Assembly: GCA_964433905.1 (NCBI GenBank)
Contig: CAYSSM010000001.1
Location: 60,246-124,245, forward strand
Source of the DNA: an uncultured Candidatus Saccharibacteria bacterium
GTDB lineage: Bacteria > Patescibacteriota > UBA1384 > UBA12157 > JAENIV01
Direction: 5' to 3'
DNA: 64,000 nt
The translations under genes and the position numbers were made by a program. Position 1 is the stretch's first letter. Each line of letters starts with the position of its first letter. Below are positions 5,748 to 63,905 of the stretch, one piece after another. The notes under the pieces are model-generated. The model was not told the origin of the DNA. It ran no database searches and was given only the letters and a program-made list of their open reading frames with translations.

Positions 5748-5750
5748 AAA

Positions 5751-6475: not shown

Positions 6476-6496
6476 CAAGAAAAAACGCTTAGATAT

Positions 6497-6531
6497 TTGA
6501 AAAAGGTGGTAAAAATATGATATATTAAATT
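6497..6531 (+). promoter_or_regulatory. Candidate sigma70-type promoter for tRNA-Ala (TTGAAA-N17/18-ATATAT/TATATT).
   Basis: TTGAAAAAGGTGGTAAAAATATGATATATT lies about 45 nt upstream of the tRNA. Confidence 0.35.
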
Positions 6532-6574
6532 AGAATTGGAAGAATAAATTCATTTAGATAGAATTAAAATTTAA

Positions 6575-6646
6575 GGGCCTGTAGCTTAGAGGAAAAGCGT
6601 TAGTATGGCATACTAAAGATCGCGAGTTCGAGTCTCGCCAGGTCCA
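6575..6646 (+). tRNA. tRNA-Ala (anticodon GGC).
   Basis: Cloverleaf folded by hand. The acceptor stem GGGCCTG/CAGGTCC carries the G3:U70 Ala identity pair. D stem GCTT/AAGC. Anticodon stem TTAGT/ACTAA with loop ATGGCAT (U33, GGC, A37). T arm GCGAG-TTCGAGT-CTCGC. Discriminator A73. No CCA is encoded. Confidence 0.85.
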
Positions 6647-6731
6647 AAAATAAACAATAGAATGACTCGCATTTGCGGGAAGGTCCGAGATAGTTGCCTA
6701 AAGGCGAGTCCCCGACGGTCCACCAACTATT

Positions 6732-46592: not shown

Positions 46593-49500
46593 TATTCTTC
46601 TCCTTCATCTATCGGTTTTTCTTTCATTTCTGGTTCGGGAACATCAAGTTCGGTTACTTCGACATCTTCGTCCGCCGCCACAGATCCAACCATAGCCTTG
46701 TCTTTAACAACCGGCGAAGCAACTTTTTTTCTTGAAAGCTCGGCTGAAGTTAACATTTCGACATTTAACCCCAATGATTGAAGTTCTTTAACTAAAACAT
46801 AAAAACTGGCAGGAATTTGTGGTTTTTGAATCGGCTCGCCCTTAATAATTGATTCATATGCTTTTGAACGGCCGATAACATCATCGGACTTAATCGTCAA
46901 AATTTCCTGCAAAGAATGGGCGGCACCATAGGCTTCCAAAGCCCAAACTTCCATTTCGCCGAATCGCTGGCCGCCAAATTGAGCTTTACCGCCTAAAGGT
47001 TGTTGGGTAACCATTGAATAAGGCCCGGTTGAACGGGCGTGCATTTTATCATCAACCATATGGCAAAGTTTCATCATATAGATAATGCCAACGGTTGTTT
47101 TTTGATCAAAAGGATTGCCGGTACGGCCATCGTAAAGCTGAACCTTACCGTCCGCAGGAAGACCGGCTTTTACTAATTCTGCTTGAATAGTTGGATATTC
47201 AACGCCTTCGAAAACGGGAACTGCCACTTTGTAATTTAATCTTTGAGCTGCCCACCCAAGATGGGTTTCTAAAATCTGTCCTAAGTTCATACGGGAAATT
47301 ACACCCAAAGGATTTAAAACAATATCCAGCGGCGTGCCGTCGGCCAAGAAAGGCATTTCTTCTTCCGGCAAAACCACCGAAATGACACCTTTATTACCGT
47401 GACGGCCGGCTAATTTATCGCCAATTTGAATTTTTCGAAGTTGTGCCACCGCTACCTCTACCATTTGGTAGACGCCGGCGGGCAATTCGTCGCCGCTTTC
47501 TTTGGAAAAGATTTTAATATCAACAACTCTCCCATATTCACCATGAGGCAAACGTAATGATGTGTCTTTAACATCTTTGGCTTTTTCACCAAAAATAGCT
47601 CTTAATAGTTTTTCTTCAGCTGACAGTTCAGTTTCACCTTTAGGAGAAATTTTACCGACTAAAATATCGCCGGCCGAAATTTCGGCGCCGATTCGAACGA
47701 TACCTTGTTCGTCAAGATTAGCCAATGCTTCTTCACCGACATTTGGAATATCGCGAGTTAGAAGTTCCGGTCCCAATTTTGTATCCCGGACTTCAAGAGA
47801 GTATTTTTCAATATGAACTGAAGTATAAACATCATTGCGGACTAATTTTTGAGAAATAATAATTGCATCTTCAAAATTTGCGCCCCTAAATGACATAAAG
47901 CCGACTAAAACATTTTTGCCCAATGCCAATTCGCCTTGCTCGGTTGCCGATGAATCAGCGATAATCTGGCCATTTTTGACTTTATCACCGACTGAAACAG
48001 CCGGAGCTTGATTAAGACAGGTCCCTTGATTAGAACGTAAAAACTTTTTTAAACGGTAACTTTCTTTTTGGCCGTTTTTTTGTTGAATGCTAATTTCCGC
48101 CGCCGAGACATCGGTTACCGTACCGTCTATCTTACTATATAGACACTGACCGGAATCTTTTGCCGCCGCCTCTTCCATACCGGTTCCGATAACAGGCGCT
48201 TGAGGTCTGACCAAAGGCACCGCTTGTCTTTCCATATTTGAACCCATTGAGGCGCGAGTGGCATCATCATGTTCGACAAAAGGAATTAAAGCCGTTGACA
48301 GGGATACCGTTTGTTTAGGCGAAACATCAACATATTGAATCTTGTTGGTTCTTTCAATTTGCGGCAGGCCAAGCCGACGAACAATGGTTCGCGATTCCAA
48401 AAAGTAGCCGTCTTTATCAAATTTTGACGACGCCGGCGCAATAATCGATTTTTCTTCCGCGTCAGCGTCTAAATAGATTAATTTATTAGTAACTCTTGGT
48501 TTTTTATTTTTACCCTCTTCGACAACTAAATATGGAGTTTCCAAAAAGCCGTATTCATTAATTTTGGCATATGAGGCCATATAGCCAACCAAACCAATAT
48601 TCGGACCTTCGGGAGTCTCGATTGGACAAATACGGCCGTAGTGTGAGGAATGAACATCACGAACTTCAAAACCGGCTCGTTCGCGCGAAAGACCGCCCGG
48701 TCCGGTAGCCGACAAACATCTCTTATGCTCTAATTCAGCTAAAGGATTTGTCTGATTCATAAACTGGGACATCTGCGAAGAAGCGTAGAATTCCTGCAAA
48801 ACCGCGGCAATCGGCCGGGCGTTAATTAATTGATTGGCGGTAACAGTATCAGGATCGAGCACCGACATACGGTCTTTAATAATTCGTTCCATACGCAAAA
48901 AGCCAACTCTTACTTTTCCTTGGACAAGCTCGCCTACTGCTCGTACACGGCGGTTTTTTAGATGATCAACATCATCAGGCTCAGCAGTTGGATCATTATT
49001 CAAACGAATAATCTCGCGAATCACTTCAACAACATCTTCGATTCTTAAAATTCTATTTTTAAGCTCATTTTCAACATTTAGCCCTAACCGGCGGTTTACT
49101 TTATAGCGACCGACTTTACCTAAATCATAACGCTTTGGGTTAAAAAACATCGCTTCTAAAAATGTTTTAGCGGTATCGGCCGTCGCCAAATCACCCGGCC
49201 TGATTCTTTTATAAACTTCGACTAATGCTTCTTCGTATGTTTTAGCGGTATCGCGACCTAAAGTCGCTTTGATATAATCGTGATCAGCATTATCATTAAC
49301 GCCCTCAAAAGCTTTAATGATTTGGTCGGTATTTAAACCTAAAGAACGCAAAAAGGTTGAAATAAGAATTTTTCTTTTTCTGTCAACTTTGACATAGATT
49401 ACATCTCGCTGGGAAGTTTCAAATTCAAGCCAAGCGCCGCGCGAAGGAATGATTTTTGCTCCAAAAAAATGTTTGTCACCTATTTCATTAGCGACAAAGA

Positions 49501-49906
49501 GAACTCCAAAAGAACGAACTATTTGAGAAACAACAACTCTTTCAATACCATTAATAATAAAAGTCCCACGGTCAGTCATTAAAGGAAAATCGCCTAAAAA
49601 GATATCCGATTCTTTAATTTTACCGGTAACTTTATTGGTTAAACGGACATGACATTTAAGCGATGATTGATAGGTAAGATTCTTGTTGCGGGTAGTATCT
49701 TCATCATAACGCGGAGTCTCCAATGAAGTGCTTAAAAAATCTAATTTCAAAAGCTTGCCGGTAAAGTCTTCTACCGGGTTAATTTCGTCTAATAGCTCGC
49801 GAATCCCCTCTTTGAAGAACCAGTCATAAGACTTGGTTTGAACCTCAATCAGATCAGGAAGGGGAATGGACATTTGTTTAGATTGATTGAATTGGACTCG
49901 AGACAC
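46592..49906 (-). CDS. rpoB: DNA-directed RNA polymerase beta subunit.
   Basis: ..IPLPDLIEVQTKSYDWFFKEGIRELL.. and conserved beta regions. The ORF track starts at GTG 49930. I favour GTG 49906, which lies 7 nt after GAGGAG; ATG 49873 is also possible. Confidence 0.9.
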   Translation of the reverse strand: MSRVQFNQSKQMSIPLPDLIEVQTKSYDWFFKEGIRELLDEINPVEDFTGKLLKLDFLSTSLETPRYDEDTTRNKNLTYQSSLKCHVRLTNKVTGKIKESDIFLGDFPLMTDRGTFIINGIERVVVSQIVRSFGVLFVANEIGDKHFFGAKIIPSRGAWLEFETSQRDVIYVKVDRKRKILISTFLRSLGLNTDQIIKAFEGVNDNADHDYIKATLGRDTAKTYEEALVEVYKRIRPGDLATADTAKTFLEAMFFNPKRYDLGKVGRYKVNRRLGLNVENELKNRILRIEDVVEVIREIIRLNNDPTAEPDDVDHLKNRRVRAVGELVQGKVRVGFLRMERIIKDRMSVLDPDTVTANQLINARPIAAVLQEFYASSQMSQFMNQTNPLAELEHKRCLSATGPGGLSRERAGFEVRDVHSSHYGRICPIETPEGPNIGLVGYMASYAKINEYGFLETPYLVVEEGKNKKPRVTNKLIYLDADAEEKSIIAPASSKFDKDGYFLESRTIVRRLGLPQIERTNKIQYVDVSPKQTVSLSTALIPFVEHDDATRASMGSNMERQAVPLVRPQAPVIGTGMEEAAAKDSGQCLYSKIDGTVTDVSAAEISIQQKNGQKESYRLKKFLRSNQGTCLNQAPAVSVGDKVKNGQIIADSSATEQGELALGKNVLVGFMSFRGANFEDAIIISQKLVRNDVYTSVHIEKYSLEVRDTKLGPELLTRDIPNVGEEALANLDEQGIVRIGAEISAGDILVGKISPKGETELSAEEKLLRAIFGEKAKDVKDTSLRLPHGEYGRVVDIKIFSKESGDELPAGVYQMVEVAVAQLRKIQIGDKLAGRHGNKGVISVVLPEEEMPFLADGTPLDIVLNPLGVISRMNLGQILETHLGWAAQRLNYKVAVPVFEGVEYPTIQAELVKAGLPADGKVQLYDGRTGNPFDQKTTVGIIYMMKLCHMVDDKMHARSTGPYSMVTQQPLGGKAQFGGQRFGEMEVWALEAYGAAHSLQEILTIKSDDVIGRSKAYESIIKGEPIQKPQIPASFYVLVKELQSLGLNVEMLTSAELSRKKVASPVVKDKAMVGSVAADEDVEVTELDVPEPEMKEKPIDEGEE

Positions 49907-50074
49907 TAAAAAACTCCTCAAAAATACCACAGCAACACCTACTGCTTAGAGGCAGAAATTTGCGTTAATAATTATTTGGTCCCACCCTTTTTTATAACTA
50001 TATTTATTACTATCTTATCTTATAATAAGATATTATTTTTGTCAAGCCCTGGGGATTAATTTTTGCCGCTAAAC

Positions 50075-50578
50075 TTAAAATATTTGTTGGCTCCCACAGA
50101 AGGAAGATGTACCAGAATCAAGTAAAATGTTATTTGACTGAGAGGAACTTTTAGGGGTACCGATGATCATTTTGTAAACATTCAAAGCGATTGCGCCAAT
50201 AAAAAGTATTATTATTATCCACAGGGCCAATTTGAATTTTATTCCGACAATATCCCAAAAAACCTTCTTGATAATTAAAAAATCGATCAATAAAATAGCT
50301 AATAAAACCAATAAATCCAAGTAGTAAATATAGGTTATAAAAACATTCATTACGGTATAGATAATAATCGAGATTGAAAATATGGCGATTATTTTGGTAG
50401 TATCGTCAAACGCCTTGCCTCTTTTTATTTTATTGACAATGATTCTCACGATCAAATACAGAGCCAAAAAAATATTTATAAAAATAATTAAACTTATAAC
50501 TCCCCGAGCTAAACTTGCGAATATTGGCGTCGGAGCAAGACAAGTCATATAGTTAGTAAAATTTTGTTTAAATTTCAA
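50075..50578 (-). CDS. Hypothetical polytopic membrane protein.
   Basis: 167-aa hydrophobic ORF in the accessory block upstream of rpoB. Confidence 0.4.
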   Translation of the reverse strand: MKFKQNFTNYMTCLAPTPIFASLARGVISLIIFINIFLALYLIVRIIVNKIKRGKAFDDTTKIIAIFSISIIIYTVMNVFITYIYYLDLLVLLAILLIDFLIIKKVFWDIVGIKFKLALWIIIILFIGAIALNVYKMIIGTPKSSSQSNNILLDSGTSSFCGSQQIF

Positions 50579-50616
50579 AATTGTCCTTTGAGAATCGTTT
50601 TCAATTATGTGCTAAT

Positions 50617-51009
50617 TTATTGTAAATTTTGATCGTCAATCACCTCTTCCTCCTGCGGTTGAGCCACATCAGCACCAACTTCAATCAGAGCGGCTTCATC
50701 GCCAGCCATTCGCTTAACGCTTAGTTCGGCAACCTCGGATGTTTTGAAAGATTCGGCAGTTTGAGGCGAAACGATAACATTAATAGTATGTGGCGGTTGA
50801 TTGGCGCGAAAACCATCAAAAAGAAAAGGAGAACAGGCATACAGGCTGACATGGGGGATATAAACACCCTCAGGAACCGGGTGAGACTGGGCTAACGACT
50901 CTTGCGTTACTTTCATCTGAGCAAAACCAACTTTTTGTTCTTTGTTTTCGCTTGTTTCCGGTGGAATTTCTGTAGGAATAGGTTCTCGGCCGATACCAAA
51001 AATACTCAT
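50617..51009 (-). CDS. Hypothetical protein (130 aa, acidic C-terminus).
   Basis: No recognisable motif. GC content looks slightly above the local background. Confidence 0.45.
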   Translation of the reverse strand: MSIFGIGREPIPTEIPPETSENKEQKVGFAQMKVTQESLAQSHPVPEGVYIPHVSLYACSPFLFDGFRANQPPHTINVIVSPQTAESFKTSEVAELSVKRMAGDEAALIEVGADVAQPQEEEVIDDQNLQ

Positions 51010-51209
51010 AACTTCTCCTTTTTGTAAATTAACTAATAATAATTAATTGTAAAACACTGCTTAATTAAATATTAACTCAAACTGAAATATAAATCAAAGT
51101 AGCTAATTCTGTCTAAAAGTAATAATATTTAAATGTAGAATAGATAATTTCAGAAAGGAGGTGAGCAGTTTTTTTCATACCTGAAGTATTAATTAGTAAG
51201 GAGCAAAAA

Positions 51210-51452
51210 ATGAAACAATCAATTGCATTATTAACTATCTTTTTGAGTTTAATCGTATTTTCCAATGTTACCAATGTCGCCAGAAATCAAAAACAAACCT
51301 TAGTTACTCCGTCGCCAGTAGTCAACAAAAGTGATATCAAGGATGCAGAAGTCAACCGCTACAACAACAAGTACCAAATCCAAGTTAATTATGATGTTAA
51401 TTCAATTACTGAAAAATTAAACTGGATAACTCAAAACGAATTAGCCAAATAA
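51210..51452 (+). CDS. Small secreted protein (signal peptide plus a ~55-aa mature part).
   Basis: Strong SD TAAGGAGCAAAAAATG and signal peptide MKQSIALLTIFLSLIVFSNV. Confidence 0.5.
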   Translation: MKQSIALLTIFLSLIVFSNVTNVARNQKQTLVTPSPVVNKSDIKDAEVNRYNNKYQIQVNYDVNSITEKLNWITQNELAK

Positions 51453-51545
51453 ACTACCTCGCAGCAAGCTGACGAGGTATCCCTGAAGGGAAAGTTTGTT
51501 TTTAACAGGTTTTCATCCTCGTAGCAAGCTACGAGGTATTCAACC
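51451..51545 (+). repeat. Hairpin repeat family, copy A (full length, two hairpins).
   Basis: AAACTACCTCGCAGCAAGCTGACGAGGTATCCCTGAAGGGAAAGTTTGTTTTTAACAGGTTTTCATCCTCGTAGCAAGCTACGAGGTATTC begins within the stop codon of the small ORF. Confidence 0.7.
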
Positions 51546-51606
51546 TCTGAAAATAAGCCACACTGCGATAAAACCTCAATGTATTGCCTAAGATGAAAAG
51601 TGTATT

Positions 51607-51637
51607 TTTATACAAAACCCCGCAAAAATATGCGAGG
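51607..51637 (-). terminator. Rho-independent terminator for the 181-aa gene: CCUCGCA-UAUUUU-UGCGGGG followed by a U-run.
   Basis: On the minus strand the sense reads CCTCGCATATTTTTGCGGGGTTTTGTATAAA, immediately after the stop at 51638. Confidence 0.55.
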
Positions 51638-52183
51638 TTAGTTGTTGGTTAAAAGTTTTCTTAAACGCAAAGTGTTTGCCACATCGCTATCACTTGCATT
51701 TAGACTTGATAAAAATTCGTCAAACTCAGGATTATTAAAAAATAAATTATCACATTTAAGGCTACAAATTACCGAATATTGCCTGAATAACAATTTACCT
51801 ATCGGCCGACTCAGTTCTGCCGGAGTGGGAGAAAGTATCATAAAATAAAATTTTTGTTTTTCTCTTGCAAGTATTTGAAAATCGTTTAATTTATTTTTAT
51901 CAAGATCGTCAGACTGCCCTTTGAAAATTACTATATCTCCAGAATCATAACAAAATGCAGCTGCTTGGATGATACTTTTTTTGCCAACAGCTGGATTTGC
52001 AATATTTACTACCACATGATCAGGTAAAATCGTAATCGGCCCTTTAGTATTAGGCAGCAATTCATCAAGCGTTAAAAATATGCCAAAAGGATAATATAAA
52101 CACAGAACAGGAAATATTTCAGATCCATCAGCCTTAAGACCGATAGATGCCACTGAAGCTGTTAGCACACTGGCTACTGGCAT
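51638..52183 (-). CDS. Hypothetical protein (181 aa).
   Basis: The true start is AAGGAGGAAATT-ATG at 52183. The 105-aa N-terminal extension in the ORF track (to 52498) runs through a terminator and into the neighbouring GC-rich gene, so it is spurious. Confidence 0.55.
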   Translation of the reverse strand: MPVASVLTASVASIGLKADGSEIFPVLCLYYPFGIFLTLDELLPNTKGPITILPDHVVVNIANPAVGKKSIIQAAAFCYDSGDIVIFKGQSDDLDKNKLNDFQILAREKQKFYFMILSPTPAELSRPIGKLLFRQYSVICSLKCDNLFFNNPEFDEFLSSLNASDSDVANTLRLRKLLTNN

Positions 52184-52268
52184 AATTTCCTCCTTGTCAA
52201 AGTACAATTCATTCTTAATTACAACATTATAACTAATATTATTATTTCGCAAGATAATCTTTTTAGAT

Positions 52269-52304
52269 AAAAAAAATGCGCCCGGGACAAAATGTCCCGG
52301 GCGC
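52269..52304 (-). terminator. Strong GC-rich rho-independent terminator: GCGCCCGGGAC-loop-GTCCCGGGCGC (11 bp) followed by an 8-U run.
   Basis: Plus strand: AAAAAAAATGCGCCCGGGACAAAATGTCCCGGGCGC. It lies 28 nt after the stop of the SdrD-like gene. Confidence 0.8.
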
Positions 52305-52331
52305 TTAAAGTTCGTCACCGTCTTGCGGTCA

Positions 52332-54110
52332 CTACGGGTAAATGACCGTTCCCGGATCAGGCAAGATGAACGGAACAGCGTCGTTATTGTTGAGTAAGTC
52401 GAGCTGACCCGCCATCGCCGTTCGTTGGGAATCGCTCCCACTCTGCCAGACCTGAATTGCCTGGGTAACCAACGTCTGCGTTGACACCCAAGAACCATTC
52501 AACCAGATCGCAGCTCCTACACCACCCAGCCGATGCCGACAGTTCATAATGAAAGCATCGAGCTGTTGAGCCAGTTGTTCACGCGGATCGCCGCCGGCGT
52601 TGGAATCAACAAGGAAATGGCTTTGCTCGGCCAAGGCCGAACCGGCAGGAGCGATGGTCTCTCCCCAGTCGCCGTTGGCAGCAGCAACGGGGGTTCCGTT
52701 AGCAAAAAAACCGTCAATCGGCTCGTCGCCGGCGCCAAAGTAACTGGACGGCGCTTGCCACGGAGCCAGACTGTTAAGGTATGCAATGTCAGACGGAGTA
52801 GTTTCACCCAACCCGTTCTTGTTATGCCAATACCCCTTGGTATCAAAATCAGCCTGGCCTTGGCGAATGTTGCCGAACTCCACTCGAGCCGAATCACCTG
52901 AAGCCAGTTGAATCTGCCTTGTCATGGGAGTAGTGTTCACCCACCCACCAGAAAGAGGCATCCGTTCGGTGATATCGTACAAACCCGGCATGATCCAGAA
53001 GGTGTCACAACCGTTAGACTTGGTTATGGAAACGCTGTCCCATACCCACCCTGCCACGGTTGTGCCATGCTCGTAGATCCACCAGCCGGGAATACCAGGC
53101 TCGCCTGCGTCCCAGATACCGTCGCCATCGAGGTCGTAGAACTTACAGACCGTTAGACGGGCCAACTGGATGTTGCCGAAGATAACTTCATGAGTTTCCC
53201 GGGAAGTCCCGGCAACCAAGAAATAGGCCGCAGGATAGTCGCGGATGCGGACGCCGTCGAGGTAGGTGCAGGTGTACATCCACCCTTCGCGCTGTTCCTC
53301 AACGAAGTTCCAAAATCCAGCCGGTTCAGTGGTGATCTGGATGGGCGTATAGTAAGTGTTGGTAACACCGAGGGGATCGATTGCATCAACCCGCCAACCA
53401 GTGATTTCCAACTCGCCTGCATCCCAGATACCGTTACCGTTAGCATCGTTGAACTTCTTAACAGTCACGACCGGCGGCGTATATGGAGGACCATTACGAC
53501 GCACCTTAAAGTTGTCGGTCTTGCTGTCCGGTGGCCTGAAACCGTGATAATTCCCCGGGCTGTAGCCGTTGTCAACGAGGTTGGGATCGCCGATGAAGTT
53601 TTCGCACGGAGTTATCCATACCTTGTAGACACCACCCTTATTGGGTGTGTCAAGGTAGGGCATCAACTGAACAGTGATCGCGCCCAGTTCAGGGTGATCG
53701 ATATCGATGCCCGTCTTGTGAGTGCAGTCGACTTCCACCCAGACACCCCTGACCTTCGTCAGCTTGGTGCACGGGTAGACATAGTCGATGACCCCAAGAG
53801 CACTGACGTGGACCTTGCGGCACTTAACCGCGTCTGTCGAGAGAAGAACCTTCCCTGACGGGTCAGTGACCTGAAAGTAGTAATCGCCCTCGTTAAGCCC
53901 CGCCGCGCCCGCAGGCGCGTTGGACCCAGGCCCGCCATCGAGATAGACATCCTCTTTGGCCGCGAAGATGTTAGCGTTGACTCGCGAACCGTCAGCCGTG
54001 GTCGTAAAAATCGCCCCCGGCATCGGCCCGGCCAAAGCCTGAGTGCTGGCCAGTGCCAACACCCCCAAAGTAGCCAGCACAACCATAATCAGCACAACCC
54101 TTCGTCCCAT
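52332..54110 (-). CDS. Secreted protein with two SdrD-B-like (Cna-B type, Ca-binding) repeat domains; GC-rich, probably of foreign origin.
   Basis: Signal peptide MGRRVVLIMVVLATLGVLALASTQALAGP. FNDANGNGIWDAGELEITGW and FYDLDGDGIWDAGEPGIPGW match the D.NGNG..D.GE.G..G motif. Codon usage is strikingly G/C-rich versus the flanking genes. Confidence 0.75.
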   Translation of the reverse strand: MGRRVVLIMVVLATLGVLALASTQALAGPMPGAIFTTTADGSRVNANIFAAKEDVYLDGGPGSNAPAGAAGLNEGDYYFQVTDPSGKVLLSTDAVKCRKVHVSALGVIDYVYPCTKLTKVRGVWVEVDCTHKTGIDIDHPELGAITVQLMPYLDTPNKGGVYKVWITPCENFIGDPNLVDNGYSPGNYHGFRPPDSKTDNFKVRRNGPPYTPPVVTVKKFNDANGNGIWDAGELEITGWRVDAIDPLGVTNTYYTPIQITTEPAGFWNFVEEQREGWMYTCTYLDGVRIRDYPAAYFLVAGTSRETHEVIFGNIQLARLTVCKFYDLDGDGIWDAGEPGIPGWWIYEHGTTVAGWVWDSVSITKSNGCDTFWIMPGLYDITERMPLSGGWVNTTPMTRQIQLASGDSARVEFGNIRQGQADFDTKGYWHNKNGLGETTPSDIAYLNSLAPWQAPSSYFGAGDEPIDGFFANGTPVAAANGDWGETIAPAGSALAEQSHFLVDSNAGGDPREQLAQQLDAFIMNCRHRLGGVGAAIWLNGSWVSTQTLVTQAIQVWQSGSDSQRTAMAGQLDLLNNNDAVPFILPDPGTVIYP

Positions 54111-54222
54111 ACCTTAGCCTCCCCAGTATTTGCCCTTGCGGGCTAGTAGTCGAACTCCGTCTTTAAAAAGCCAGAGCCGCCTGCAGACCCGCAAGGTATT
54201 TTTCAAAGATCAAATTAGAACT

Positions 54223-54251
54223 AATATAGCACATTTAACCATAAAAGTCAA
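54223..54251 (-). promoter_or_regulatory. Near-consensus sigma70 promoter TTGACT-N17-TATATT for the SdrD-like gene, followed by a ~105-nt GC-rich structured 5'UTR.
   Basis: Minus-strand sense: TTGACTTTTATGGTTAAATGTGCTATATT. The UTR has the inverted repeat TTGCGGG...CCCGCAA and the SD GGGGAGGCTAAGGT-ATG. Confidence 0.55.
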
Positions 54252-54307
54252 TATTTTGTACATGTACTGCATATGTGAGCGTAAAAAGCTAAACTAAAAT
54301 TACAATA

Positions 54308-55276
<969 letters not shown>

Positions 55277-55318
55277 TTACTATATCATACTTTTATTAAT
55301 TTACAAACCACTCATTGA

Positions 55319-56311
55319 TTACAAATAATCCAATGGGTTGAGTACTCGACCATTTTTAGTGATTTTGAAATGAACATGCACACCTGTCGACCAGCCGGTA
55401 TTGCCCATAACACCGATAACCTGACCTTGATTGACCCATTGGCCGGCAGAAACTGCAAAAGTTGACATATGCCCATAAAGCGTTTGCCAGCCGTCGCCGT
55501 GATCAATCACGATAAAATTGCCGTAACCACCACCCCAACCACGGGTGGCGCGGACAACTCTTCCTGAGGCTGAAGCAAAAAGGGTTGTTCCCGAACGCGA
55601 AGTTAAATCAACTCCATCATGAAAAGCCTCAAATGAAGTTCGACCAAACCCTTGAGACATATCCCAACCGGATGTAGGTCGCCTGAAAGTCCCCGAAAAA
55701 GGAATTTTAGTTGAGGCTCCGGCAACTTTTTTCTTCTGTAAATTTTGTAACTGGGTCGGCGCCAAATCCTGCGGTGGAATTTTTAATTGCTGACCGGGCT
55801 TAATCATATCTGACGACAAGCTGTTTGCAGTCTTAATAGTCGAAACTTTCAATCCATATTTCCAAGCAATGCTGGCGATGGTATCGCCGCCTTCAACCGT
55901 ATAAACGATTGTTTTTGTCCTTTTTTCATCTTTTTTCGATTCTTCAGTTACTTGAGTCGTGGTAAGTTCCGGCTTTGAAAGAAAATCTTGATCTTCCATC
56001 GCCAGAGCTACCGATAAAGGATCTTCCTCAATTTTAGTGGTAAAAGGTCCAACTTGAGAAACTACATCGGCAACTTCCGCCGGCGAAAGATCCATAATTT
56101 CTTCCGAAGGCTGAAAGTAATAAGAATTTTCTTGGGCTTTTGCCACATCAGCCACCACCGTAAAAAAAGCTATTATCATTATTGATAAATAGGGTAAAAT
56201 CCTTTTTTGATTAAAATCAATTAATCCCTCCGGTATGCGGTTGCGGATACGTTTTGACAGGATATCTTTTCTGAGGACAATTCTCTCTAAGATTTTTTTA
56301 AAAATATTCAT
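55319..56311 (-). CDS. Peptidase M23 (LytM) with a LysM domain and an N-terminal TM.
   Basis: LysM YTVEGGDTIASIAWKYGL..GQQLKIP and the M23 motifs HDGVDL / GNTGWSTGVHVHFKI. Confidence 0.8.
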   Translation of the reverse strand: MNIFKKILERIVLRKDILSKRIRNRIPEGLIDFNQKRILPYLSIMIIAFFTVVADVAKAQENSYYFQPSEEIMDLSPAEVADVVSQVGPFTTKIEEDPLSVALAMEDQDFLSKPELTTTQVTEESKKDEKRTKTIVYTVEGGDTIASIAWKYGLKVSTIKTANSLSSDMIKPGQQLKIPPQDLAPTQLQNLQKKKVAGASTKIPFSGTFRRPTSGWDMSQGFGRTSFEAFHDGVDLTSRSGTTLFASASGRVVRATRGWGGGYGNFIVIDHGDGWQTLYGHMSTFAVSAGQWVNQGQVIGVMGNTGWSTGVHVHFKITKNGRVLNPLDYL

Positions 56312-56370
56312 ATGTATAAGGGAAAGCCTACAATATCCAGTTTAACTTAACACGCAAGAATGTCAAATAT

Positions 56371-56430
56371 AAACTACTCTGCGGCTTGCCGCAGAGTATC
56401 CTGCGGAAAGTTTGTTTCCAAACAGGTTGA
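56371..56430 (+). repeat. Hairpin repeat family, copy B (short; lacks the second hairpin).
   Basis: AAACTACTCTGCGGCTTGCCGCAGAGTATCCTGCGGAAAGTTTGTTTCCAAACAGGTTG lies directly downstream of the infB stop. Confidence 0.65.
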
Positions 56431-56440
56431 AAATAAAAAC

Positions 56441-58369
56441 TTATTCCCCCAATTTTCGAGTTCGTTCTTCTTTTTTATAACATTCCAATGAGTCCCCCAC
56501 TAAAATTTTGGTTGGAGATTCTACTTTAAGACCGCATTCAAAACCCTCCGCCACTTCGGAAGTGTCTTTTTTATTTTGTTGTAAAGAGGTAATCTCGCCC
56601 ATACCAATAGTATCTTTATCACGAACAATCCTGACTTGGCAATGATCTTCTAATTTTCCTTTTGTTACCCTTCCACCAATAATTTTTTCATTTTTAGATG
56701 TCTTAAAAACAGCTAAGATTGATAGCCGACCGATTTCAGTTTCAATGATTTCCGGCTCAAGTAATCCTGATAGAGCGGCGGTTAAATCATCCAATAATTG
56801 GTAAATAATATCGTAGATAGAAATTTTAATATTTTCGCGGCGAGCCAAATTCATAACATCGGTTGACGCTTTAACGCGAAAGCCAATCACCAAAGCATGG
56901 GAGGCAACCGCCATATTGATATCTGACTCGGAAATATCTCCAACTCCCTCGTGAATAATTTTTATTTTAACTTCTTTATCTTCCAAATTCTTAAGTGAAC
57001 TCTTAATCGCTTCAAGCGAGCCGGCAACATCAGACTTAAGGACAATTTTGAGTTCTTTTATTTTTCCCGCTTTGATATCTTGCGAAAGTTCGGTGATGGA
57101 AATAACTCTGCGTTTAATTGTTTTTGTTTTAGTTAATTCTTTGGCAGTCTTTTCATTTTCAACAACCAAGAATCTGTTGCCAAAATCCGGTAGGTCCTGC
57201 AAACCGGCGATTCTAACCGGAACCGAAGGAGCAGCTTCTTTTATTTTCTTGCCCAAATAATTTTCCATAATCCTAACTTTGCCATAAGTATCACCGATAA
57301 CAATAGGGTCACCGATTTTTAGAGTTCCCTCTTGAACTAAAACCGTAGCAATGGGACCCATACCAGATTGCATATGCGACTCAATCACCACGCCAGTTGC
57401 AGAAAGCGTTGGATCAGCTTTAAGCTCTTTAAGGTCGGCAACCAGTAAAATCATTTCCAACAAACTATCGATATTTTTTGTTTCCTTGGCTGAAACATTG
57501 ATCATAGGCACATCACCGCCCCACTGCTCCGACAAAAGACCGTTGTCGGCTAATTGTCTCTTGGTTTTATCAATATCGGCATCGGGCAAGTCAACTTTAT
57601 TAATAGCCACGACAATTGGCACACCCGCTTCCTTGGCATGGTTTATAGCCTCAATCGTTTGCGGTTTTACGCCATCGTTTGCCGCTACCACCAAAACAAC
57701 CACATCGGTAATATTAGCCCCGTGAGCTCGCATGGCCGAAAAGGCCTCGTGTCCGGGAGTGTCCAAAAAAGTGATTTTGCGTGATTTAGACGCAAAATCA
57801 TCCTGAGTTTTACGAAGGATCTCTCGATTAGATTTGCTTCCTTGAGATGATGTTTCGTCTTTTGGACGAATTGTGACTTGATAAGCGCCGATATGCTGAG
57901 TGATGCCGCCTGCTTCGGTGGCAATAACATCCGTGTGGCGGATGGCGTCAAGCAATTTGGTTTTACCATGGTCAACATGGCCCATAACCGTAACTACCGG
58001 AGATCGCAGTTTTAGATTCTTTTTAACTTGTTTTAGAGATGCAACTATTTTCTCTTCTTCCTTCAACTTTACCTCAACGGCAAACTCATCAGCAATAATA
58101 GCCATTGTGTCAAAATCAATGAGTTCATTAATCGTCGCCATGACACCGTTTTTGACAAGTTTGGAAATTATTTCCGTAACGGACAAATTCAAAATATCCG
58201 CAAATTCCCGCACCGTTAAAACAGGCGAAATTAAAACAATTCTTTTTTCGGTTTTTTCTTTTTCGACTTTTGCCTCTTTAACCGCTTTGTTTTCTTCCAC
58301 TTGCGTTAAGCGCTTGCCTTCGGCTTTAGCTTCTTTTTTGCTTAATTTTCTTTGCTTTCTTTTTGCCAT
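56441..58369 (-). CDS. infB: Translation initiation factor IF-2.
   Basis: G domain [20 protein letters not shown]; 642 aa. Confidence 0.95.
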   Translation of the reverse strand: MAKRKQRKLSKKEAKAEGKRLTQVEENKAVKEAKVEKEKTEKRIVLISPVLTVREFADILNLSVTEIISKLVKNGVMATINELIDFDTMAIIADEFAVEVKLKEEEKIVASLKQVKKNLKLRSPVVTVMGHVDHGKTKLLDAIRHTDVIATEAGGITQHIGAYQVTIRPKDETSSQGSKSNREILRKTQDDFASKSRKITFLDTPGHEAFSAMRAHGANITDVVVLVVAANDGVKPQTIEAINHAKEAGVPIVVAINKVDLPDADIDKTKRQLADNGLLSEQWGGDVPMINVSAKETKNIDSLLEMILLVADLKELKADPTLSATGVVIESHMQSGMGPIATVLVQEGTLKIGDPIVIGDTYGKVRIMENYLGKKIKEAAPSVPVRIAGLQDLPDFGNRFLVVENEKTAKELTKTKTIKRRVISITELSQDIKAGKIKELKIVLKSDVAGSLEAIKSSLKNLEDKEVKIKIIHEGVGDISESDINMAVASHALVIGFRVKASTDVMNLARRENIKISIYDIIYQLLDDLTAALSGLLEPEIIETEIGRLSILAVFKTSKNEKIIGGRVTKGKLEDHCQVRIVRDKDTIGMGEITSLQQNKKDTSEVAEGFECGLKVESPTKILVGDSLECYKKEERTRKLGE

Positions 58370-58415
58370 TGTAAATTGATTTTATCACTTTCAGGAGTAA
58401 AAGGCAAGGTTAAGC

Positions 58416-58444
58416 TTGACTTTTGAGTAATTTTATGGTATAAT
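58416..58444 (+). promoter_or_regulatory. Consensus sigma70 promoter TTGACT-N17-TATAAT.
   Basis: TTGACTTTTGAGTAATTTTATGGTATAAT lies about 50 nt upstream of the TTG-start ORF, with the SD AAAGGAGA. Confidence 0.65.
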
Positions 58445-58494
58445 GCGAATTAGAATGCTGTGGAATATGCCAATCTCACCGAAAGGAGACCAAG

Positions 58495-58773
58495 TTGGCA
58501 CAACCAGAAATCGTTGATCACCTCGTACGAAAACACTGCCTAAGCATGAAACAGAACGTCCAGTTGCTCCTGTTGATCATTGAGGCTGCGGCAGCAACCA
58601 GCACCATCCCAGTTACAGAGTATGATGAAGAACCGGATAGTTACTACACGCCAAGTGGCGCAAGTCGTTCCGACTTTGAGATGAGACTGAAGAAGAGCAT
58701 GGAAACCGTCGACCGCCCGGTCATCCTCGCCTTCAAGGAATATCTGGAGGCCCAGACCGCCGCCCTAAAGTAG
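58495..58773 (+). CDS. Small GC-rich hypothetical protein (92 aa, TTG start).
   Basis: Good SD (GAAAGGAGACCAAG-TTG), GC-rich codons in an AT-rich genome, and a hairpin terminator 24 nt downstream. Confidence 0.5.
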   Translation: MAQPEIVDHLVRKHCLSMKQNVQLLLLIIEAAAATSTIPVTEYDEEPDSYYTPSGASRSDFEMRLKKSMETVDRPVILAFKEYLEAQTAALK

Positions 58774-58796
58774 GGCTACAAGAACACACCACACAA

Positions 58797-58821
58797 GAGG
58801 CTCTGCGGATCGCAGAGCCTC
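58797..58821 (+). terminator. Hairpin GAGGCTCTGCG-GAT-CGCAGAGCCTC (11-bp perfect stem) followed by a T-rich tract.
   Basis: Seen in sequence. It lies in the 66-nt gap between the small ORF stop and the convergent gyrA stop. Confidence 0.6.
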
Positions 58822-58839
58822 TTCCTATATATACTGTTT

Positions 58840-61761
58840 TTATAGCTTTCCACCCCAATAATTGGCTTCGGATGGTTTTTCTTTTTCTTCAAAAAGATTG
58901 GTTTGAGTATCTTTATTAATTTTTTTTGGCGATTTTAATTTAGCTGATTTTAGCGCTGTACCATCATGAACAGCCGCCCATTCGGGAAGACCGCCTTCTT
59001 TTGTATCAGCTTTTTGATTATCTTTTTCTTCTTCTTTTTTAGGTTTCGAAACTGCTGGCTCTTCTTCTTCTTCTTCTGCTGCTACTGCTACCTCTTCGGT
59101 TTCCTCTGCTGTTGCTTGTGATATTTTAAGTTCTTCTTCCGCTTCAACTACATCAATTTGCTGTTCAGGCAATTCTTTGTCAATTTCAATTAATTTATTG
59201 GTTTTATCTTTGCTAATTATCGTAACCGAAGTAACTTTATCACCCTGATTGAATCGAATTAAAGTTACTCCTTGAGTGTCGCGCTGTAATTTTTTGACTG
59301 TCGCAAGCGCCATTCTGATAACTTGGCCTTTGCGCGACGCCAAAATCAAATCGTAGTTATCATCGGAAACCAGCCTCATGCCAACAATCGGTCCGGTTCT
59401 TTCGGTTACATTAGCCGCCCGCAAACCCATGCCGCCACGAAGTTGCATATTAAACATCGTTAAAGGCGTTCTCTTACCAAATCCTTTTTCCAAAACAATC
59501 AGGGCATCAACCTTACTTTCGGCTCCGGCAGGAATAACATCGGTTGAGACAACATAATCATCACCCTTGAGCAAAATCCCCCGCACTCCGGCAGCGGTTC
59601 TGCCCATCGGACGAATGTCGGTTTCTTTGTAAAAAATAGATTGGCCTTTGGCAGAAACCTGAAAAACATTCTCATCACCGGTGGTTACTTTTACCCAACG
59701 AAGGCGATCTTCCGGACGAAGTTTAATGGCCAAAATTCCGGTTTTTCTAACCTTGCTGTATAGCTTCATGCTCGTTTTTTTAACAAGGCCTTTGCTTGTT
59801 GCCAATAAAATATATTTATATTTTTCGATATCACTCGATGACAGCGTAATCATGGCCGTTACTTTTTCTTCGGGCGAAATTTGTAGAATATTAACGATCG
59901 CCTGGCCTTTGGCAATCCGCGAAGCCGTAGGTATTTCATAGACCTTAGTATGGAAGATTCTACCACGATCGGTAAAGAAATAGACATCATCATGAGTATT
60001 AGACACCAGCAAATGTTCAATCATGTCTTCTTCTTTAGTTTCCATCCCAATCACGCCCTTGCCGCCTCGAATCTGGCTGCGGTAAGACGATACCGGCATC
60101 CTTTTTATATAGTTGCCGCGAGTAAATATGATAATCACTTGTTCTGACGGAATTAAATCCTCGGCGCTAAATCTGCCCAGTTCTTGCGGGTGGATTTTGG
60201 TCTTTCTGGGAGTAGCGTATTTTTCTTGAAGTTCTTTAAGCTCTTTTTTAATGATACTTAGAATCTTTTCTTCTGATGCCAAGACAGCTTCCAGCTCAGC
60301 GATTAATTTTAATTTTTCTTTGTATTCCGTTTCTACTTTTTCCCGTTCCAAGGCGGCAAGAGCGGCAAGGCGCATTTCCAAGATAGCATTTGCTTGAATA
60401 TCAGTCAGTTTAAATTTAATTTTTAGCTGCTTAAAAGCCACTTCGCGATTGGCCGATTTTCTAATTGTCGCCACCACTTCATCGATGTTTTTTAAAGCAA
60501 TCCGCAAGCCCTCTAAAATATGAGCACGTTCTTTGGCTTTCTTTAGTTCGAAAGCAGTGCGACGGCGGACAACTGCTTTACGATGCTTAATATATTCTTC
60601 TAAAATATTTTTGAGCGTTAACACTCGCGGCTGAAGGCCGTCGATTAGCGCCAGCATATTGGTATAAAAAGTCGTCTGCATCAATGTCAGTTCATAAAGA
60701 CGATTTAATATTTTTTTCGGATAAGCGTTGGCCTTAAGTTCAATGACGATTCTGACACCGTCTTTTCGATCTGACTCGTCTCGAAGATCGGAAATTCCTT
60801 CCAATTTCTTTTCTTTAACTAAATCGGCAATTTTGGTAATCAATTCGGCTTTATTGACCTGATACGGTATCTCGGAAACAATAATCCTAAAACCGCGTTT
60901 ATTTTCTTCAATATTGGCCACCGCCCGCATTATAATCGCTCCCTTGCCTGTAGCATAAGCGGCCTTTATTTGTTCCACCCCAAAAATTTCCGCTCCGGTT
61001 GGAAAATCGGGTCCTTGAATATATTGCATCATATCTTCGATAGTACAGTCGGGATTTTCAATTAAATGAATAACCGCGTCGCAAATTTCACCTAAATTAT
61101 GAGGCGGAATATTGGTTGCCATGCCTACGGCAATACCCATCGAACCGTTAATTAACAAATTAGGAAGCTTGGCCGGCATCACTTTTGGTTCTTGCCTGGA
61201 AGCATCATAGTTGGCCACAAAATCAACCGTTTCCTTGTCAATATCAGCGAGCATTTCGCTAGCGGCGGAAGTCAAACGACATTCGGTATAACGCATGGCG
61301 GCGGCGGCATCGCCATCCATTGAACCAAAGTTACCTTGACCGTCAACAAGCGGAAGTCTCATGGAAAAGCTTTGCGCCAATCTTACTAAAGTATCATAAA
61401 CAGCAATATCGCCATGCGGATGATATTTCCCCAAAACATCACCAACAACGGTGGCTGACTTGCGATATTTTGCTTGAGGAGTTAGCCCCAATTCCGACAT
61501 TGAAAATAATACGCGGCGATGAACCGGTTTTAGGCCATCGCGAACATCAGGCAAAGCACGGGCGATGATGACCGACATGGCGTAGGCTAAATACGACTCT
61601 TGCATTTCGTTTTCTAATATTCTCGGCCGCATTATGCCAAACTCGGTTTTCACATCCTTCGTTTTATCATCCTCAAAATTACCGATCGTTTCCGACTCGG
61701 CCACTTTTTCAGGATTAAGTTTTTCTAAATCTTCTTTACTTTCTTTGTCGCTTGCTGCCAT
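58840..61761 (-). CDS. gyrA: DNA gyrase subunit A with a ~100-aa acidic/Lys-rich C-terminal tail.
   Basis: Active-site region and ..AAMRYTE..; 973 aa. The C-terminus carries an EEEEEE stretch. Confidence 0.95.
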
Positions 61762-61958
61762 TATTTTCCTTCATGACTATGTTTTTTGAACTCCCCTTTG
61801 GCTTTTTTTACATTCGATGGCACCGCCCTTGGTTTGCCCCGTTGCTTGCCCATTCCTACCTCAATTTCGTACCAATTTTTATGAGATTTTTCCGTTTCCA
61901 AAAATGAGTTTGGTTTTACAATTTTTCCTTTAACTTTAACTTGTTTGGAATTTTTCAT
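61761..61958 (-). CDS. Small basic protein (65 aa) between gyrB and gyrA.
   Basis: SD AAGGAAAAAATG. Its stop overlaps the gyrA start. Lys-rich. Confidence 0.4.
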
Positions 61959-61973
61959 TTTTTCCTTGCTATT

Positions 61974-63905
61974 TTATACATCCAAATTTTTAACATATTT
62001 GGCATGAGTTTGAATGAAACGCTTTCGGGGCGCAACTTCGTCACCCATCAACATTGAAAAGATTTCGTCGGCTTTTTCGGCATCGGATATTTCCACTTTA
62101 AGTAAGACCCTGTTTTCGGGATCCATAGTCGTATCCCACAGTTGCGTTGGCGTCATTTCACCCAAACCTTTGTATCTTTGAATCGAAATACTTTCACCTA
62201 ATTTTTTAATGATTTCATCTTTTTGTTCATCATTGTAGGCAAATAACTTTTCTCTGCCTTTAGTAATGGCATACAAAGGCGGTTGGGCAATATATAAATT
62301 ACCGTTTTTTATAGTATCGGGAAAATGACGATAAAAAAGCGTGAGCAGCAAGGTTCTGATGTGCGAACCATCAACATCGGCATCGGTCATAATAATAATC
62401 CGATGATAGCGCAATTTAGCCATATTAATAACTTCACCAATGCCAACTCCGATAGCGACAATTAACGATTTAATTTCCTCGGATGCAAGCATTTTGTCAA
62501 GCCGGGTTCTTTCAACATTTAAAATTTTACCGCGCAAAGGCAGGATGGCTTGAAAAGTGCGGTCGCGGCCTTGCTTGGCCGAACCTCCGGCCGAATCACC
62601 CTCGACAATATAGAGTTCGCTTTTTTTGGGATCATGAGAAGAACAATCAGCCAATTTACCTGGCAAAGTCATCCCTTCCAAAGCGCCTTTGCGGATGACA
62701 GTTTCCCGGGCTGCTTTCGCTGCCAGCCTGGCTCTTAAAGACAAGGAACATTTTTCAAGTATTTTTCGGCCATCGGCGGGATGCTCTTCCAGCCAATATC
62801 CTAATCCTTCGTAAGTGGCCTGTTCAACCAAACTTTTCATCTCCGGATTGCCAAGCCGGGCTTTTGTCTGGCCTTCAAACTGCGGATCGGGTAATTTAAC
62901 TGAAATAACCGCCGTTAACCCTTCGCGAGTATCATCGCCGGTTAGCATGGCTTCGGAATTTTTAATTATTTCATACTTTTTTGCATAATCATTTAAAGCT
63001 CTTGTCAGAGCGGTTCGAAAACCAGTTAAATGGGTACCCCCTTCTGTTGTATGAATGTTGTTGGCAAAGGCAAAAACATGCTCATTGTAATCGTCAGTAT
63101 AAGCAAGCGCCACTTCGACTCGCGTGTTTTCTGTTTGCTTTTCAAGGTACACCGGTGGATCATTGAAGGAAGTTTTATTCTTGTTGATATGGCGAACATA
63201 TGAAGAAATACCGCCCTCAAAATAAAATGTGAAACAATTTTTAAGATCCGCTTTCGATTTTTGATCAGTGTCTTTTCTTCTGTCACAAATAGTGATACTG
63301 ACGCCTTTAGTTAAATAAGCTTGTTGGCGAAGATGGTTAAGAATTGTTTCCCATGAATAATTTATGGTAGAAAATATCTCTGAGTCAGGTTCAAAACTAA
63401 TGGTGGTACCTTTTTCGTCGGTTACACCGACATTTTTAACAGACCCCTTGGCTTTACCGCGAGCATATTCCTGAACATAGTGCTTGCCGTCTCGGAAAAC
63501 CTCGGCTTGCATCCATGATGAAAGAGCGTTAACGACCGAAACACCAACTCCATGCAAACCACCGGAAACTTTGTAAGCATCACTTTGACCAAACTTTCCG
63601 CCAGCATGCAAAGTGCTTAAAACCGTTTCCAAGGCGCTTTTTTTGGTTTGAGGATGAATATCAACCGGAATCCCACGACCATTATCTTTTACTCTGATCC
63701 GGTTATCGGCCAAAAGCTCGACAATGATCTTATCACAAAAACCGGCCATTGCTTCATCGATGGCATTATCGACGACCTCCCAAATAAGATGATGGAGTCC
63801 CTCCACACCAGTGCCGCCAATGTACATTCCTGGCCTGCGGCGAACCGGCTCAAGTCCTTCTAAAACAGTAATATTCTTGGCTGTATAATCAGATTGGGCT
63901 GACAT
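61974..63905 (-). CDS. gyrB: DNA gyrase subunit B.
   Basis: GHKL ATPase (..LHHLIWEVVDNAIDE..), the Toprim motif EGDSAGG and 643 aa. Confidence 0.95.
   Translation of the reverse strand: MSAQSDYTAKNITVLEGLEPVRRRPGMYIGGTGVEGLHHLIWEVVDNAIDEAMAGFCDKIIVELLADNRIRVKDNGRGIPVDIHPQTKKSALETVLSTLHAGGKFGQSDAYKVSGGLHGVGVSVVNALSSWMQAEVFRDGKHYVQEYARGKAKGSVKNVGVTDEKGTTISFEPDSEIFSTINYSWETILNHLRQQAYLTKGVSITICDRRKDTDQKSKADLKNCFTFYFEGGISSYVRHINKNKTSFNDPPVYLEKQTENTRVEVALAYTDDYNEHVFAFANNIHTTEGGTHLTGFRTALTRALNDYAKKYEIIKNSEAMLTGDDTREGLTAVISVKLPDPQFEGQTKARLGNPEMKSLVEQATYEGLGYWLEEHPADGRKILEKCSLSLRARLAAKAARETVIRKGALEGMTLPGKLADCSSHDPKKSELYIVEGDSAGGSAKQGRDRTFQAILPLRGKILNVERTRLDKMLASEEIKSLIVAIGVGIGEVINMAKLRYHRIIIMTDADVDGSHIRTLLLTLFYRHFPDTIKNGNLYIAQPPLYAITKGREKLFAYNDEQKDEIIKKLGESISIQRYKGLGEMTPTQLWDTTMDPENRVLLKVEISDAEKADEIFSMLMGDEVAPRKRFIQTHAKYVKNLDV

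Follow-up and report, generated by a model that had tools for sequence, protein, structure and literature searches.

A GC-rich single-gene cassette, probably acquired horizontally, encodes a predicted secreted B-repeat protein in a low-GC CPR chromosome

Within a window of 64,000 nt (the whole stretch of contig CAYSSM010000001.1 analysed here), one gene on the minus strand lies in a conspicuous GC-rich island between obg and the orphan gene orf181. We consider this island to be, probably, a horizontally acquired single-gene expression cassette of ~2.0 kb in the low-GC chromosome of a bacterium belonging to the Candidate Phyla Radiation (CPR). The segment is compositionally foreign and is absent from the same site in relatives, and its gene encodes a 592-aa protein with a predicted signal peptide and two modules resembling the B repeats of SdrD. 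Acquisition events of this kind are known as such; what makes the locus noteworthy is that the gene belongs to an uncharacterised cross-domain family and that it recurs in CPR genomes as an un-ameliorated cassette.

The GC-rich segment coincides with one transcription unit

The island (52269-54198) has a GC content of 0.558, against 0.377 ± 0.028 (maximum 0.439) in all other windows of 1.93 kb (z = 6.3), and its strand-symmetric tetranucleotide profile lies at a distance of z = 16.7 from the 64-kb background. Followed in 300-nt sliding windows, GC rises from 0.31-0.38 to 0.53-0.60 at about 52.3-54.2 kb and then returns to the lower level; at 1-kb resolution it never exceeds 0.44 elsewhere, so that 52269-54251 is the sole excursion within the 64 kb. 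The excess is located at third codon positions, with a third-position GC (GC3) of 0.637 in the island open reading frame (ORF) compared to 0.321 ± 0.04 (maximum 0.388) in the remaining ORFs of 200 aa or more. Several long ORFs of up to 222 aa, out of frame or antisense, overlie the gene and are spurious, as GC-rich DNA leads one to expect. An original prediction, made from the letters of the sequence, had described a GC-rich island at about 52278-54198 with GC-rich third codon positions and long antisense ORFs, and these profiles bear it out. Besides the coding sequence, the leader and the 3' untranslated region (UTR) are GC-rich too. The rise starts near 54198, ~25 nt past the -10 box, and ends at the terminator; thus the GC-rich segment is exactly one transcription unit.

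This unit opens with a predicted sigma-70-type promoter, TTGACT-N17-TATATT (54223-54251), which agrees with the consensus at 10 of 12 positions, carries an extended -10 TG, and is AT-rich and upstream of the GC step. The pattern TTGACT-N16-18-TATAWT occurs twice in the 64 kb for 0.08 occurrences expected; the second perfect site (58416-58444, plus strand) lies just past the start of the IF-2 gene, in the opposite orientation. The 5' leader (54111-54213) is predicted to form a stem-loop (54196-54134) with an outer 10-bp stem made of CCUUGCGGGU and GCCCGCAAGG (fold of -35.2 kcal/mol, z = -2.9), and a putative Shine-Dalgarno sequence, GGGGAGG (54124-54118), precedes the ATG, which comes 7 nt further on. 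The coding sequence (52332-54110) comprises 592 codons and a stop, has a GC content of 0.559, and specifies a 'hypothetical protein' of the KKQ90991.1 type. Downstream, the 3' UTR with its GC-rich intrinsic terminator occupies 52269-52331, where the GC-rich segment stops; the hairpin (52304-52278) has a 12-bp stem with 10 G-C pairs and is followed by an A and a T8 run (52276-52269), with a folding z of -5.5. A consensus promoter, a structured leader, the 592-aa ORF and a strong terminator show, at the level of sequence signals, that the island is an intact single-gene unit. The gene, the AT-rich promoter, the GC-rich leader and coding sequence, and the GC hairpin terminator had all been predicted, and each was found in its place. 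The leader and the 3' UTR were also considered as a riboswitch or other known RNA, a candidate we rejected on finding sub-threshold, terminator-like Rfam matches only. Finally, dN/dS for the island gene comes to 0.14-0.18 in comparison with other copies and to 0.28 among alleles, which shows that the gene is under purifying selection.

The island sits in the chromosome at a synteny break

The native upstream neighbour is obg (54308-55270, minus strand), the last gene of a conserved gyrA-IF-2-M23-obg block, which marks the insertion site. On the other side lies orf181 (51638-52183, minus strand), a lineage-specific orphan whose homologues, in a search of 5.8 billion proteins, all belong to its own cluster. 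The Obg and the LysM/M23 peptidase of the window are identical to proteins of Candidatus Berkelbacteria GW2011_GWA1_39_10, a CPR bacterium from Rifle groundwater, and the island protein and IF-2 fall into the same 90% clusters as KKQ90991.1 and KKQ90994.1 of that genome, respectively. In two relatives (L091 and L092; IF-2 71-78%, M23 66-69% and Obg 61-67% identical) the order IF-2-M23-Obg is kept, and downstream of obg there is neither an island gene nor a GC excursion; we therefore conclude that the island was inserted. The downstream neighbours of these relatives are likewise not conserved and, on gene content, the island sits at a synteny break with lineage-specific orphans downstream. A lineage-specific block of small orphans without a confident Pfam family (50075-52183; orf181, an 80-aa ORF, orf130 and orf167) starts right at the island. 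A different GC-rich patch of ~1 kb (GC 0.54-0.61) is present in L091 at 500-1500, just upstream of IF-2, with a 220-aa ORF and no Rfam match, and inserts of this type, small and GC-rich, may be frequent in the lineage.

A chimeric assembly had been named as a risk in the prediction, and independent assemblies that cross both junctions argue against it. The assembly L001 from the European Nucleotide Archive (ENA; 13.8 kb) is collinear with window positions 48880-62690 at 99.5% identity and covers both junctions. IF-2, Obg and the island protein occur together on a single 33-kb ENA contig and on NCBI contigs of 58 and 130 kb, the latter carrying the exact sequences of the island protein and IF-2, and the sister-strain contig L090 (GWB1_38_5) covers the obg-side junction before it stops 92 nt inside the island gene. 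Because independent assemblies (L001 and the 33-kb ENA contig) cross the junctions and L090 covers the obg side, a chimera is very unlikely, and the assembled sequences show the island to be truly part of the chromosome.

The window and L001 differ by 57 substitutions, ~39 of them inside the island, with two dense clusters at 52322-52523 and 53783-53820 (~12% and ~29% local divergence). We rejected a hypervariable island gene, as the mismatch clusters occur solely in P0001/L001 and five other cluster members agree with the window; the clusters look like a second allele, recombination tracts or strain switching by the assembler. In L090, 99 nt of obg are missing in frame (window 54689-54787); that the sister strain has a divergent obg allele was again rejected, this being a 99-nt gap in otherwise ~99.8% identical sequence. 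The same part of obg (54665-54917 region) carries a cluster of 11 substitutions in L001, a strain-variable patch adjoining the island. At window position 59075, apparently in the gyrA region, the near-identical assemblies differ by a 12-nt indel (CTTCTTCTGCTG in L001), and the 100-nt bin of L090 at this place is 88% identical.

A 14-nt direct repeat brackets the island

A 14-nt direct repeat flanks the unit. Its upstream copy, ATATTAGTTCTAAT (54214-54227, minus strand), shares sequence with the -10 box and the likely start of transcription, and its downstream copy, ATATTAGTTATAAT (52226-52239, minus strand), lies ~30 nt past the T-run of the terminator, in the orf181 promoter region. The repeat consensus, ATATTAGTT[C/A]TAAT, has just these two occurrences in the window even when one mismatch is allowed, and none of 60 shuffles of the flanks gave as good a match. 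Judged from this single locus, the repeat is possibly a duplication that arose as a fragment lacking a promoter inserted behind one already resident. A GC-rich fragment of that sort would have inserted just after the transcription start of the resident promoter, probably that of orf181; the insertion would have left the 14-nt duplication and placed the gene under a promoter of host type.

No tRNA adjoins the island, and the neighbouring ORFs gave no recombinase-type Pfam match. None of the plasmids or GenBank phages carries a gene of this family, and the 2.9 million viral contigs of IMG/VR yielded two weak, partial matches. An integron gene cassette came into consideration from the defined ends and the 3' hairpin; the island's own promoter and the T-run after the hairpin, in the manner of an intrinsic terminator, argue against one, although no search for attC or intI was made.

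The island gene encodes a predicted secreted five-part protein

In order of position, the product is predicted to comprise a Sec-type signal peptide, an N-terminal beta domain, two Ca-loop beta-sandwiches and a C-terminal alpha/beta domain; the borders were drawn from a 48-sequence alignment and an AlphaFold2 (AF2) model (predicted local distance difference test score, pLDDT, of 87.7). The signal peptide (residues 1-27; 54030-54110), judged from sequence features, has the start MGRR, a hydrophobic core and a probable cut between ALA and GP, much as the prediction had proposed. It is the sole hydrophobic segment of the protein, AF2 models residues 2-20 as a helix followed by a low-confidence linker, and an equivalent N terminus is present in all homologues. 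The conserved, beta-rich N-domain (residues 28-212; 53475-54029) displays the motifs GAIFTT, DVYLDGGPG, YYFQVTDPSGK, TPNxGGVYKVW and SKTDN[YF]K together with a C97/C129 pair. B-like repeat 1 (residues 213-316; 53163-53474) is a beta-sandwich of SdrD-B/CnaB type with the Ca-loop motif DANGNGIWDAGE at residue 222, and B-like repeat 2 (residues 317-418; 52857-53162) has the motif DLDGDGIWDAGE at residue 326 and a conserved C322/C368 pair. The C-domain (residues 419-592; 52335-52856) is highly conserved, with the motifs TKGYWHNKNG and REQLAQQL, and reaches a pLDDT of 90.2 when modelled by itself. For both terminal domains, Pfam and NCBIfam gave no match; the C-domain lacks any solved structural relative, and the whole protein has no sequence relative with a solved structure.

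Each B module opens with the loop D-x-[DN]-G-[DN]-G-x-x-D-x-G-E (our shorthand), a predicted Ca loop, and Ca binding by SdrD B repeats is well established. The two B-repeat modules of the original prediction are thus recovered as motifs, while the profile match falls just short: the window protein scores 27.7 bits (E = 3.3e-6) against Pfam SdrD_B (PF17210), whose gathering score is 29.7. Among the 48 aligned family members, 47 match SdrD_B at E ≤ 0.01 (best 8e-15) and 40 match SpaA (PF17802); archaeal relatives reach 130-143 bits with SdrD_B. Three cysteine pairs co-vary across the family, and the member P0055 has a dockerin-like tail, both of which argue for an extracellular location; the sequences fit a protein that is extracellular and disulfide-stabilised. 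The C416/C587 pair is lost as a pair in the window copy (R/G instead), and a CPR-specific loss of this disulfide was rejected since the two cysteines are lost together in several phyla.

The window protein has no LPXTG or LP.[TSA]G motif, no Ser-Asp (SD) repeat and no C-terminal or second hydrophobic segment, ending in ...ILPDPGTVIYP, and hence shows no sign of a membrane or sortase anchor in its sequence. It is therefore not one of the microbial surface components recognizing adhesive matrix molecules (MSCRAMMs), and no NCBIfam MSCRAMM model matches it. Compared with the Sdr MSCRAMMs of Staphylococcus, it also lacks the N2-N3 (dock, lock and latch, DLL) A-region and has unrelated terminal domains. 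The description of its modules as typical of adhesins from high-GC Gram-positive bacteria did not hold, SdrD being staphylococcal and the present family occurring in archaea and many phyla, didermic ones included, but not in staphylococci. With CnaB/prealbumin-like stalks (Bacillus anthracis TIE, 6fwv; SpaA; GBS52) the central modules share the beta-sandwich fold class; in contrast, the window protein has no pilin motif, sortase signal or thioester domain, and its TM-scores against such structures are ~0.2, the match being limited to the central third of the protein.

The family spans archaea and many bacterial phyla

More than 900 family members are detectable, mostly at 45-60% identity over the full length. 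Homologues at 50-60% identity are found in Asgard archaea (Hermod-, Hod-, Prometh-, Heimdall- and Kariarchaeota), in Thermoplasmatota and in more than 10 bacterial phyla, among them Nitrospinota, Gemmatimonadota, Chloroflexota, Actinomycetota/Coriobacteriia, Myxococcota and other Deltaproteobacteria, Planctomycetota, Vibrio and CPR. Occurrence is patchy and the family tree is incongruent with taxonomy. Identities above 50% between Asgard archaea and many bacteria imply frequent inter-domain transfer and a conserved ligand or activity, and the family constitutes a well-defined piece of 'dark' protein space, with two conserved domains of confidently predicted fold and no characterised relative. 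An exhaustive phmmer search for a wider superfamily of the C-domain returned 116 representatives, all of one architecture. The N-domain behaves as a module: Acidobacteriota, Rubrivivax and Nitrospirota have it with a single B module (~310 aa), and in Thermoplasmatota it is followed by 4-5 B modules and a divergent C-domain. No neighbour gene is conserved across phyla; the gene is solitary, with mutual synteny solely among Coriobacteriia/Actinomycetota loci.

Two contexts suggest, by analogy, a role at the surface or in adhesion. In L049 the N-domain and one B module are fused to a choice-of-anchor A / pAdhesive_15 domain, and in L086 (6682-21363) a non-island member lies in a cluster with a prepilin-type N_methyl protein, DUF7305, pAdhesive_15, a secretin and an ATPase of the type II secretion system/type IV pilus kind (T2SS/T4P). 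The window protein thus shares the N-domain and B fusion, and in L086 the pAdhesive_15/DUF7305 neighbourhood, with choice-of-anchor A / pAdhesive_15 ('ice-binding-like adhesive') proteins, but it lacks that domain and has the family-specific C-domain in its stead. Next to another non-island member, L085 (12999-21824) encodes a giant RHS/YD-repeat protein that exceeds 4,000 aa.

GC-rich copies recur in other CPR genomes

Across 36 loci in which the composition of the gene matches its flanks, GC3 follows host GC closely (GC3 = 1.65 x host GC - 0.25, r = 0.976). The sole family members to break this calibration lie on low-GC contigs of CPR type. The Berkelbacteria metagenome-assembled genome (MAG) CoA_1_bin.50 holds two such copies, a frameshifted one (L026; gene GC 0.60, flank GC 0.42), which spans 5968-7711 and is split near 6450-6590, and a truncated one (L030; 0.60 and 0.37), whose 332-aa ORF (5728-6726) retains the N-domain and one B module and reaches its stop codon at the GC drop. 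L082 (0.61 and 0.41) is an 807-kb contig whose LepA has named relatives that are nearly all Patescibacteria; L084 (0.57 and 0.39) carries the closest homologue of the window copy; L172 (0.59 and 0.42) carries P0050 and L088 (0.56 and 0.42) carries P0009. L087 and L089 show a weaker GC excess over their flanks. L026 also contains a smaller GC-rich patch (3900-4650; 0.55-0.65 compared to ~0.40), encoding a short protein with KGG-type repeats (GHKGG.../GRIGG...), which may be another foreign single-gene insert. The GC-rich single-gene island thus occurs in at least three CPR lineages (the window, L026/L030 and L082), at a different genomic site each time.

The island copies share their anatomy, with an AT-rich promoter TTGAC[T/A]-N17-TATAxT, a rise in GC at the leader and a terminator with a GC hairpin, and no remnant of a donor neighbour gene was seen at any of them. 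In a neighbour-joining tree six island sequences form a clade of 88% bootstrap, which the window copy joins weakly (bootstrap 14-28%). The GC3 of the copies spans 0.49-0.79, and their synonymous divergence is saturated (dS > 2); together with the dN/dS of 0.14-0.18, the latter indicates that they are old relatives under purifying selection and not one recently spread island. GC-rich orthologues in related low-GC genomes had been put forward in the prediction as a sign of ancient residence instead of transfer. Such orthologues do exist (L026, L030, L082, L084, L172 and L088), but at non-syntenic sites and with saturated dS; they are therefore no proof of ancient vertical residence, and they turn one transfer event into a recurring pattern.

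One pair of copies extends the likeness beyond the gene. L084 and L172 are 78% identical at the nucleotide level over 2,005 nt, from promoter to terminator, with sharp ends and flanks that share nothing. As read from this alignment, AT-rich promoter and GC-rich gene travel together in a cassette whose ends are defined. The first 28 nt of the alignment, GTCCCAGTAAAATAAAGGATACATCTTA, are 100% identical (approximately L084 1242-1269 and L172 528-555), lie just upstream of the -35 box and in L084 belong to an imperfect palindrome (GTCCCA...TGGGAC); they could serve as a site for a regulator or for recombination. At the other end, an 81-nt 3' UTR that includes the terminator (L084 3154-3234, L172 2365-2445) is ~93% identical and more conserved than the coding sequence, which points to recent recombination there or to an RNA element with a function.

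The source genome was probably at least as GC-rich as 0.54

The window copy stands 5.6 residual standard deviations above the GC3/host-GC line, a value equal to a donor of ~0.54 GC. From this calibration the source genome would have a GC content no lower than about 0.54, and more if amelioration is already under way, and is apparently unsampled. Concomitantly, the copies of Asgard hosts (31-37% GC) have a gene GC of ~0.43 and a GC3 of ~0.35, and the protein can therefore be encoded at low GC. Attempts to trace the donor by non-coding homology gave no match of the leader or the 3' UTR at any other locus. The proposal of a complete cassette from a high-GC donor hence stands as regards a foreign, intact unit and a source of at least ~0.54 GC, while the donor was not found. 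Its further suggestion, that the donor is the host of an episymbiont, finds no support, the best non-self match being 64% identical and itself an island copy.

Origin of the island

The simplest reading of these data is ordinary horizontal acquisition, events of which are already known. The GC3 spread of 0.49-0.79 and the decay of two copies are consistent with independent imports that have ameliorated and decayed to different degrees. Two puzzles accompany this reading: anciently diverged copies in AT-rich genomes stay GC-rich with no high-GC donor relative closer than 65% known, and in every case GC-rich segment and transcription unit coincide. Other results weigh against our interpretation. 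The bracketing repeat was not found at the five other island loci examined, which leaves the duplication model with one repeat to draw on. Among 5.8 billion proteins the best non-self match is P0003, at 64% identity, and its gene is a GC island itself, in low-GC flanks; with a best match this distant the transfer is not a recent one, or else its source lineage is unsampled, and the first case leaves the missing amelioration to be explained. The adhesin function, moreover, is argued by analogy, from terminal domains without a characterised relative and with no informative conserved neighbour. An assembly or binning artefact, by which a GC-rich fragment of another organism was joined into the Berkelbacteria contig, would suit the abrupt GC steps at both ends, the end of L090 inside the gene and the location of about two thirds of the window/L001 differences in the island. 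Against it, at least three assemblies/assemblers (L001, the 33-kb ENA contig, and the 58- and 130-kb NCBI contigs) give the full gene the same neighbours, the junctions match promoter and terminator precisely, and the same anatomy is seen in unrelated samples and contigs, the 807-kb contig included; we hold this explanation to be very improbable. More improbable still is an ancient vertical Berkelbacteria gene with a GC content forced by its amino acids. The protein is indeed rich in Gly, Pro, Ala and Asp, and in hosts of 31-37% GC the gene remains 6-13 points above its flanks, but the Asgard copies have adapted to low GC, the excess of the island lies at third codon positions, the syntenic relatives have no such gene, and the leader and 3' UTR are GC-rich as well.

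Another account, which we think unlikely but take more seriously than those two, is that of a long-standing cassette circulating among CPR/Patescibacteria, its GC content upheld, for example, by selection on the mRNA or by repeated recombination with outside alleles that these cells, being naturally competent, take up. GC-rich copies in low-GC flanks at different loci of at least three CPR lineages speak for it, with L084, L172, L088, L087 and L089 behaving likewise, as does the grouping of several island copies in the 88%-bootstrap clade; the window copy, however, groups with them weakly. L084 and L172 share the whole unit, with non-coding ends 93-100% conserved amid unrelated flanks, but theirs is the one pair in which such ends can be aligned. 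Every copy has its promoter at the GC step and no trace of donor neighbours, dS between copies is saturated, and ComEC and DprA-like genes lie near several copies, yet the gene has no recombinase, phage or plasmid associated with it, and we know of no mechanism that holds GC3 at 0.64-0.79 in a genome of 37-41% GC. The GC3 range resembles stages of ordinary amelioration, and the frameshifted and truncated copies of one MAG have decayed as ordinary acquired genes do. Single-gene transfers in groundwater Patescibacteria, reportedly mostly intra-phylum and mostly not recent (PMC12455944), agree with circulation. Somewhat more doubtful to us is the proposition that the family is a recombinase-less, self-contained mobile unit of CPR running from promoter to terminator between defined ends, kept GC-rich for long by selection or by recombination with environmental alleles and encoding a surface protein with two novel domains. 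If it were true, this would be a previously undescribed kind of single-gene mobile unit, whose protein may attach an episymbiont to its partner.

Horizontal acquisition also agrees with what is documented of gene transfer in groundwater Patescibacteria (PMC12455944), a study in which the family is not mentioned. The islands described there have in common with ours a streamlined CPR genome, foreign DNA at a synteny break, a date that is not very recent and an unrecovered donor; they differ in that here a single 2-kb cassette shows an unusually strong and persistent contrast, in several CPR lineages and with one pair of conserved ends. Un-ameliorated islands in at least three CPR lineages, together with one cassette conserved from end to end, offer a test case for single-gene uptake by streamlined, naturally competent symbionts and for the way in which such genes come under a working promoter.

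Possible function of the island protein

An adhesin-like mechanism is the function we find most likely, with moderate to low confidence and by analogy with the A-B-anchor layout of Sdr-type adhesins, the anchor-A fusion in L049 and the pilus/secretin cluster in L086. The protein would be exported by Sec; its two Ca-stiffened B modules would act as a spacer, the N-domain as a ligand-binding head for a partner cell or surface, and the C-domain could serve attachment or oligomerisation at the envelope of the producer. A life attached to other cells is presumed for CPR bacteria, and to our knowledge very few of their attachment factors have been described. Being foreign, intact, strongly promoted, selectively maintained, predicted to be secreted and adhesin-like, the island protein is a candidate CPR attachment factor.

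Elsewhere in the window, the sign of the GC skew flips at ~10670, between convergent genes (plus-strand ORFs end at 10674 and minus-strand ORFs begin at 10671); this is probably an effect of gene strand and possibly a replication terminus.

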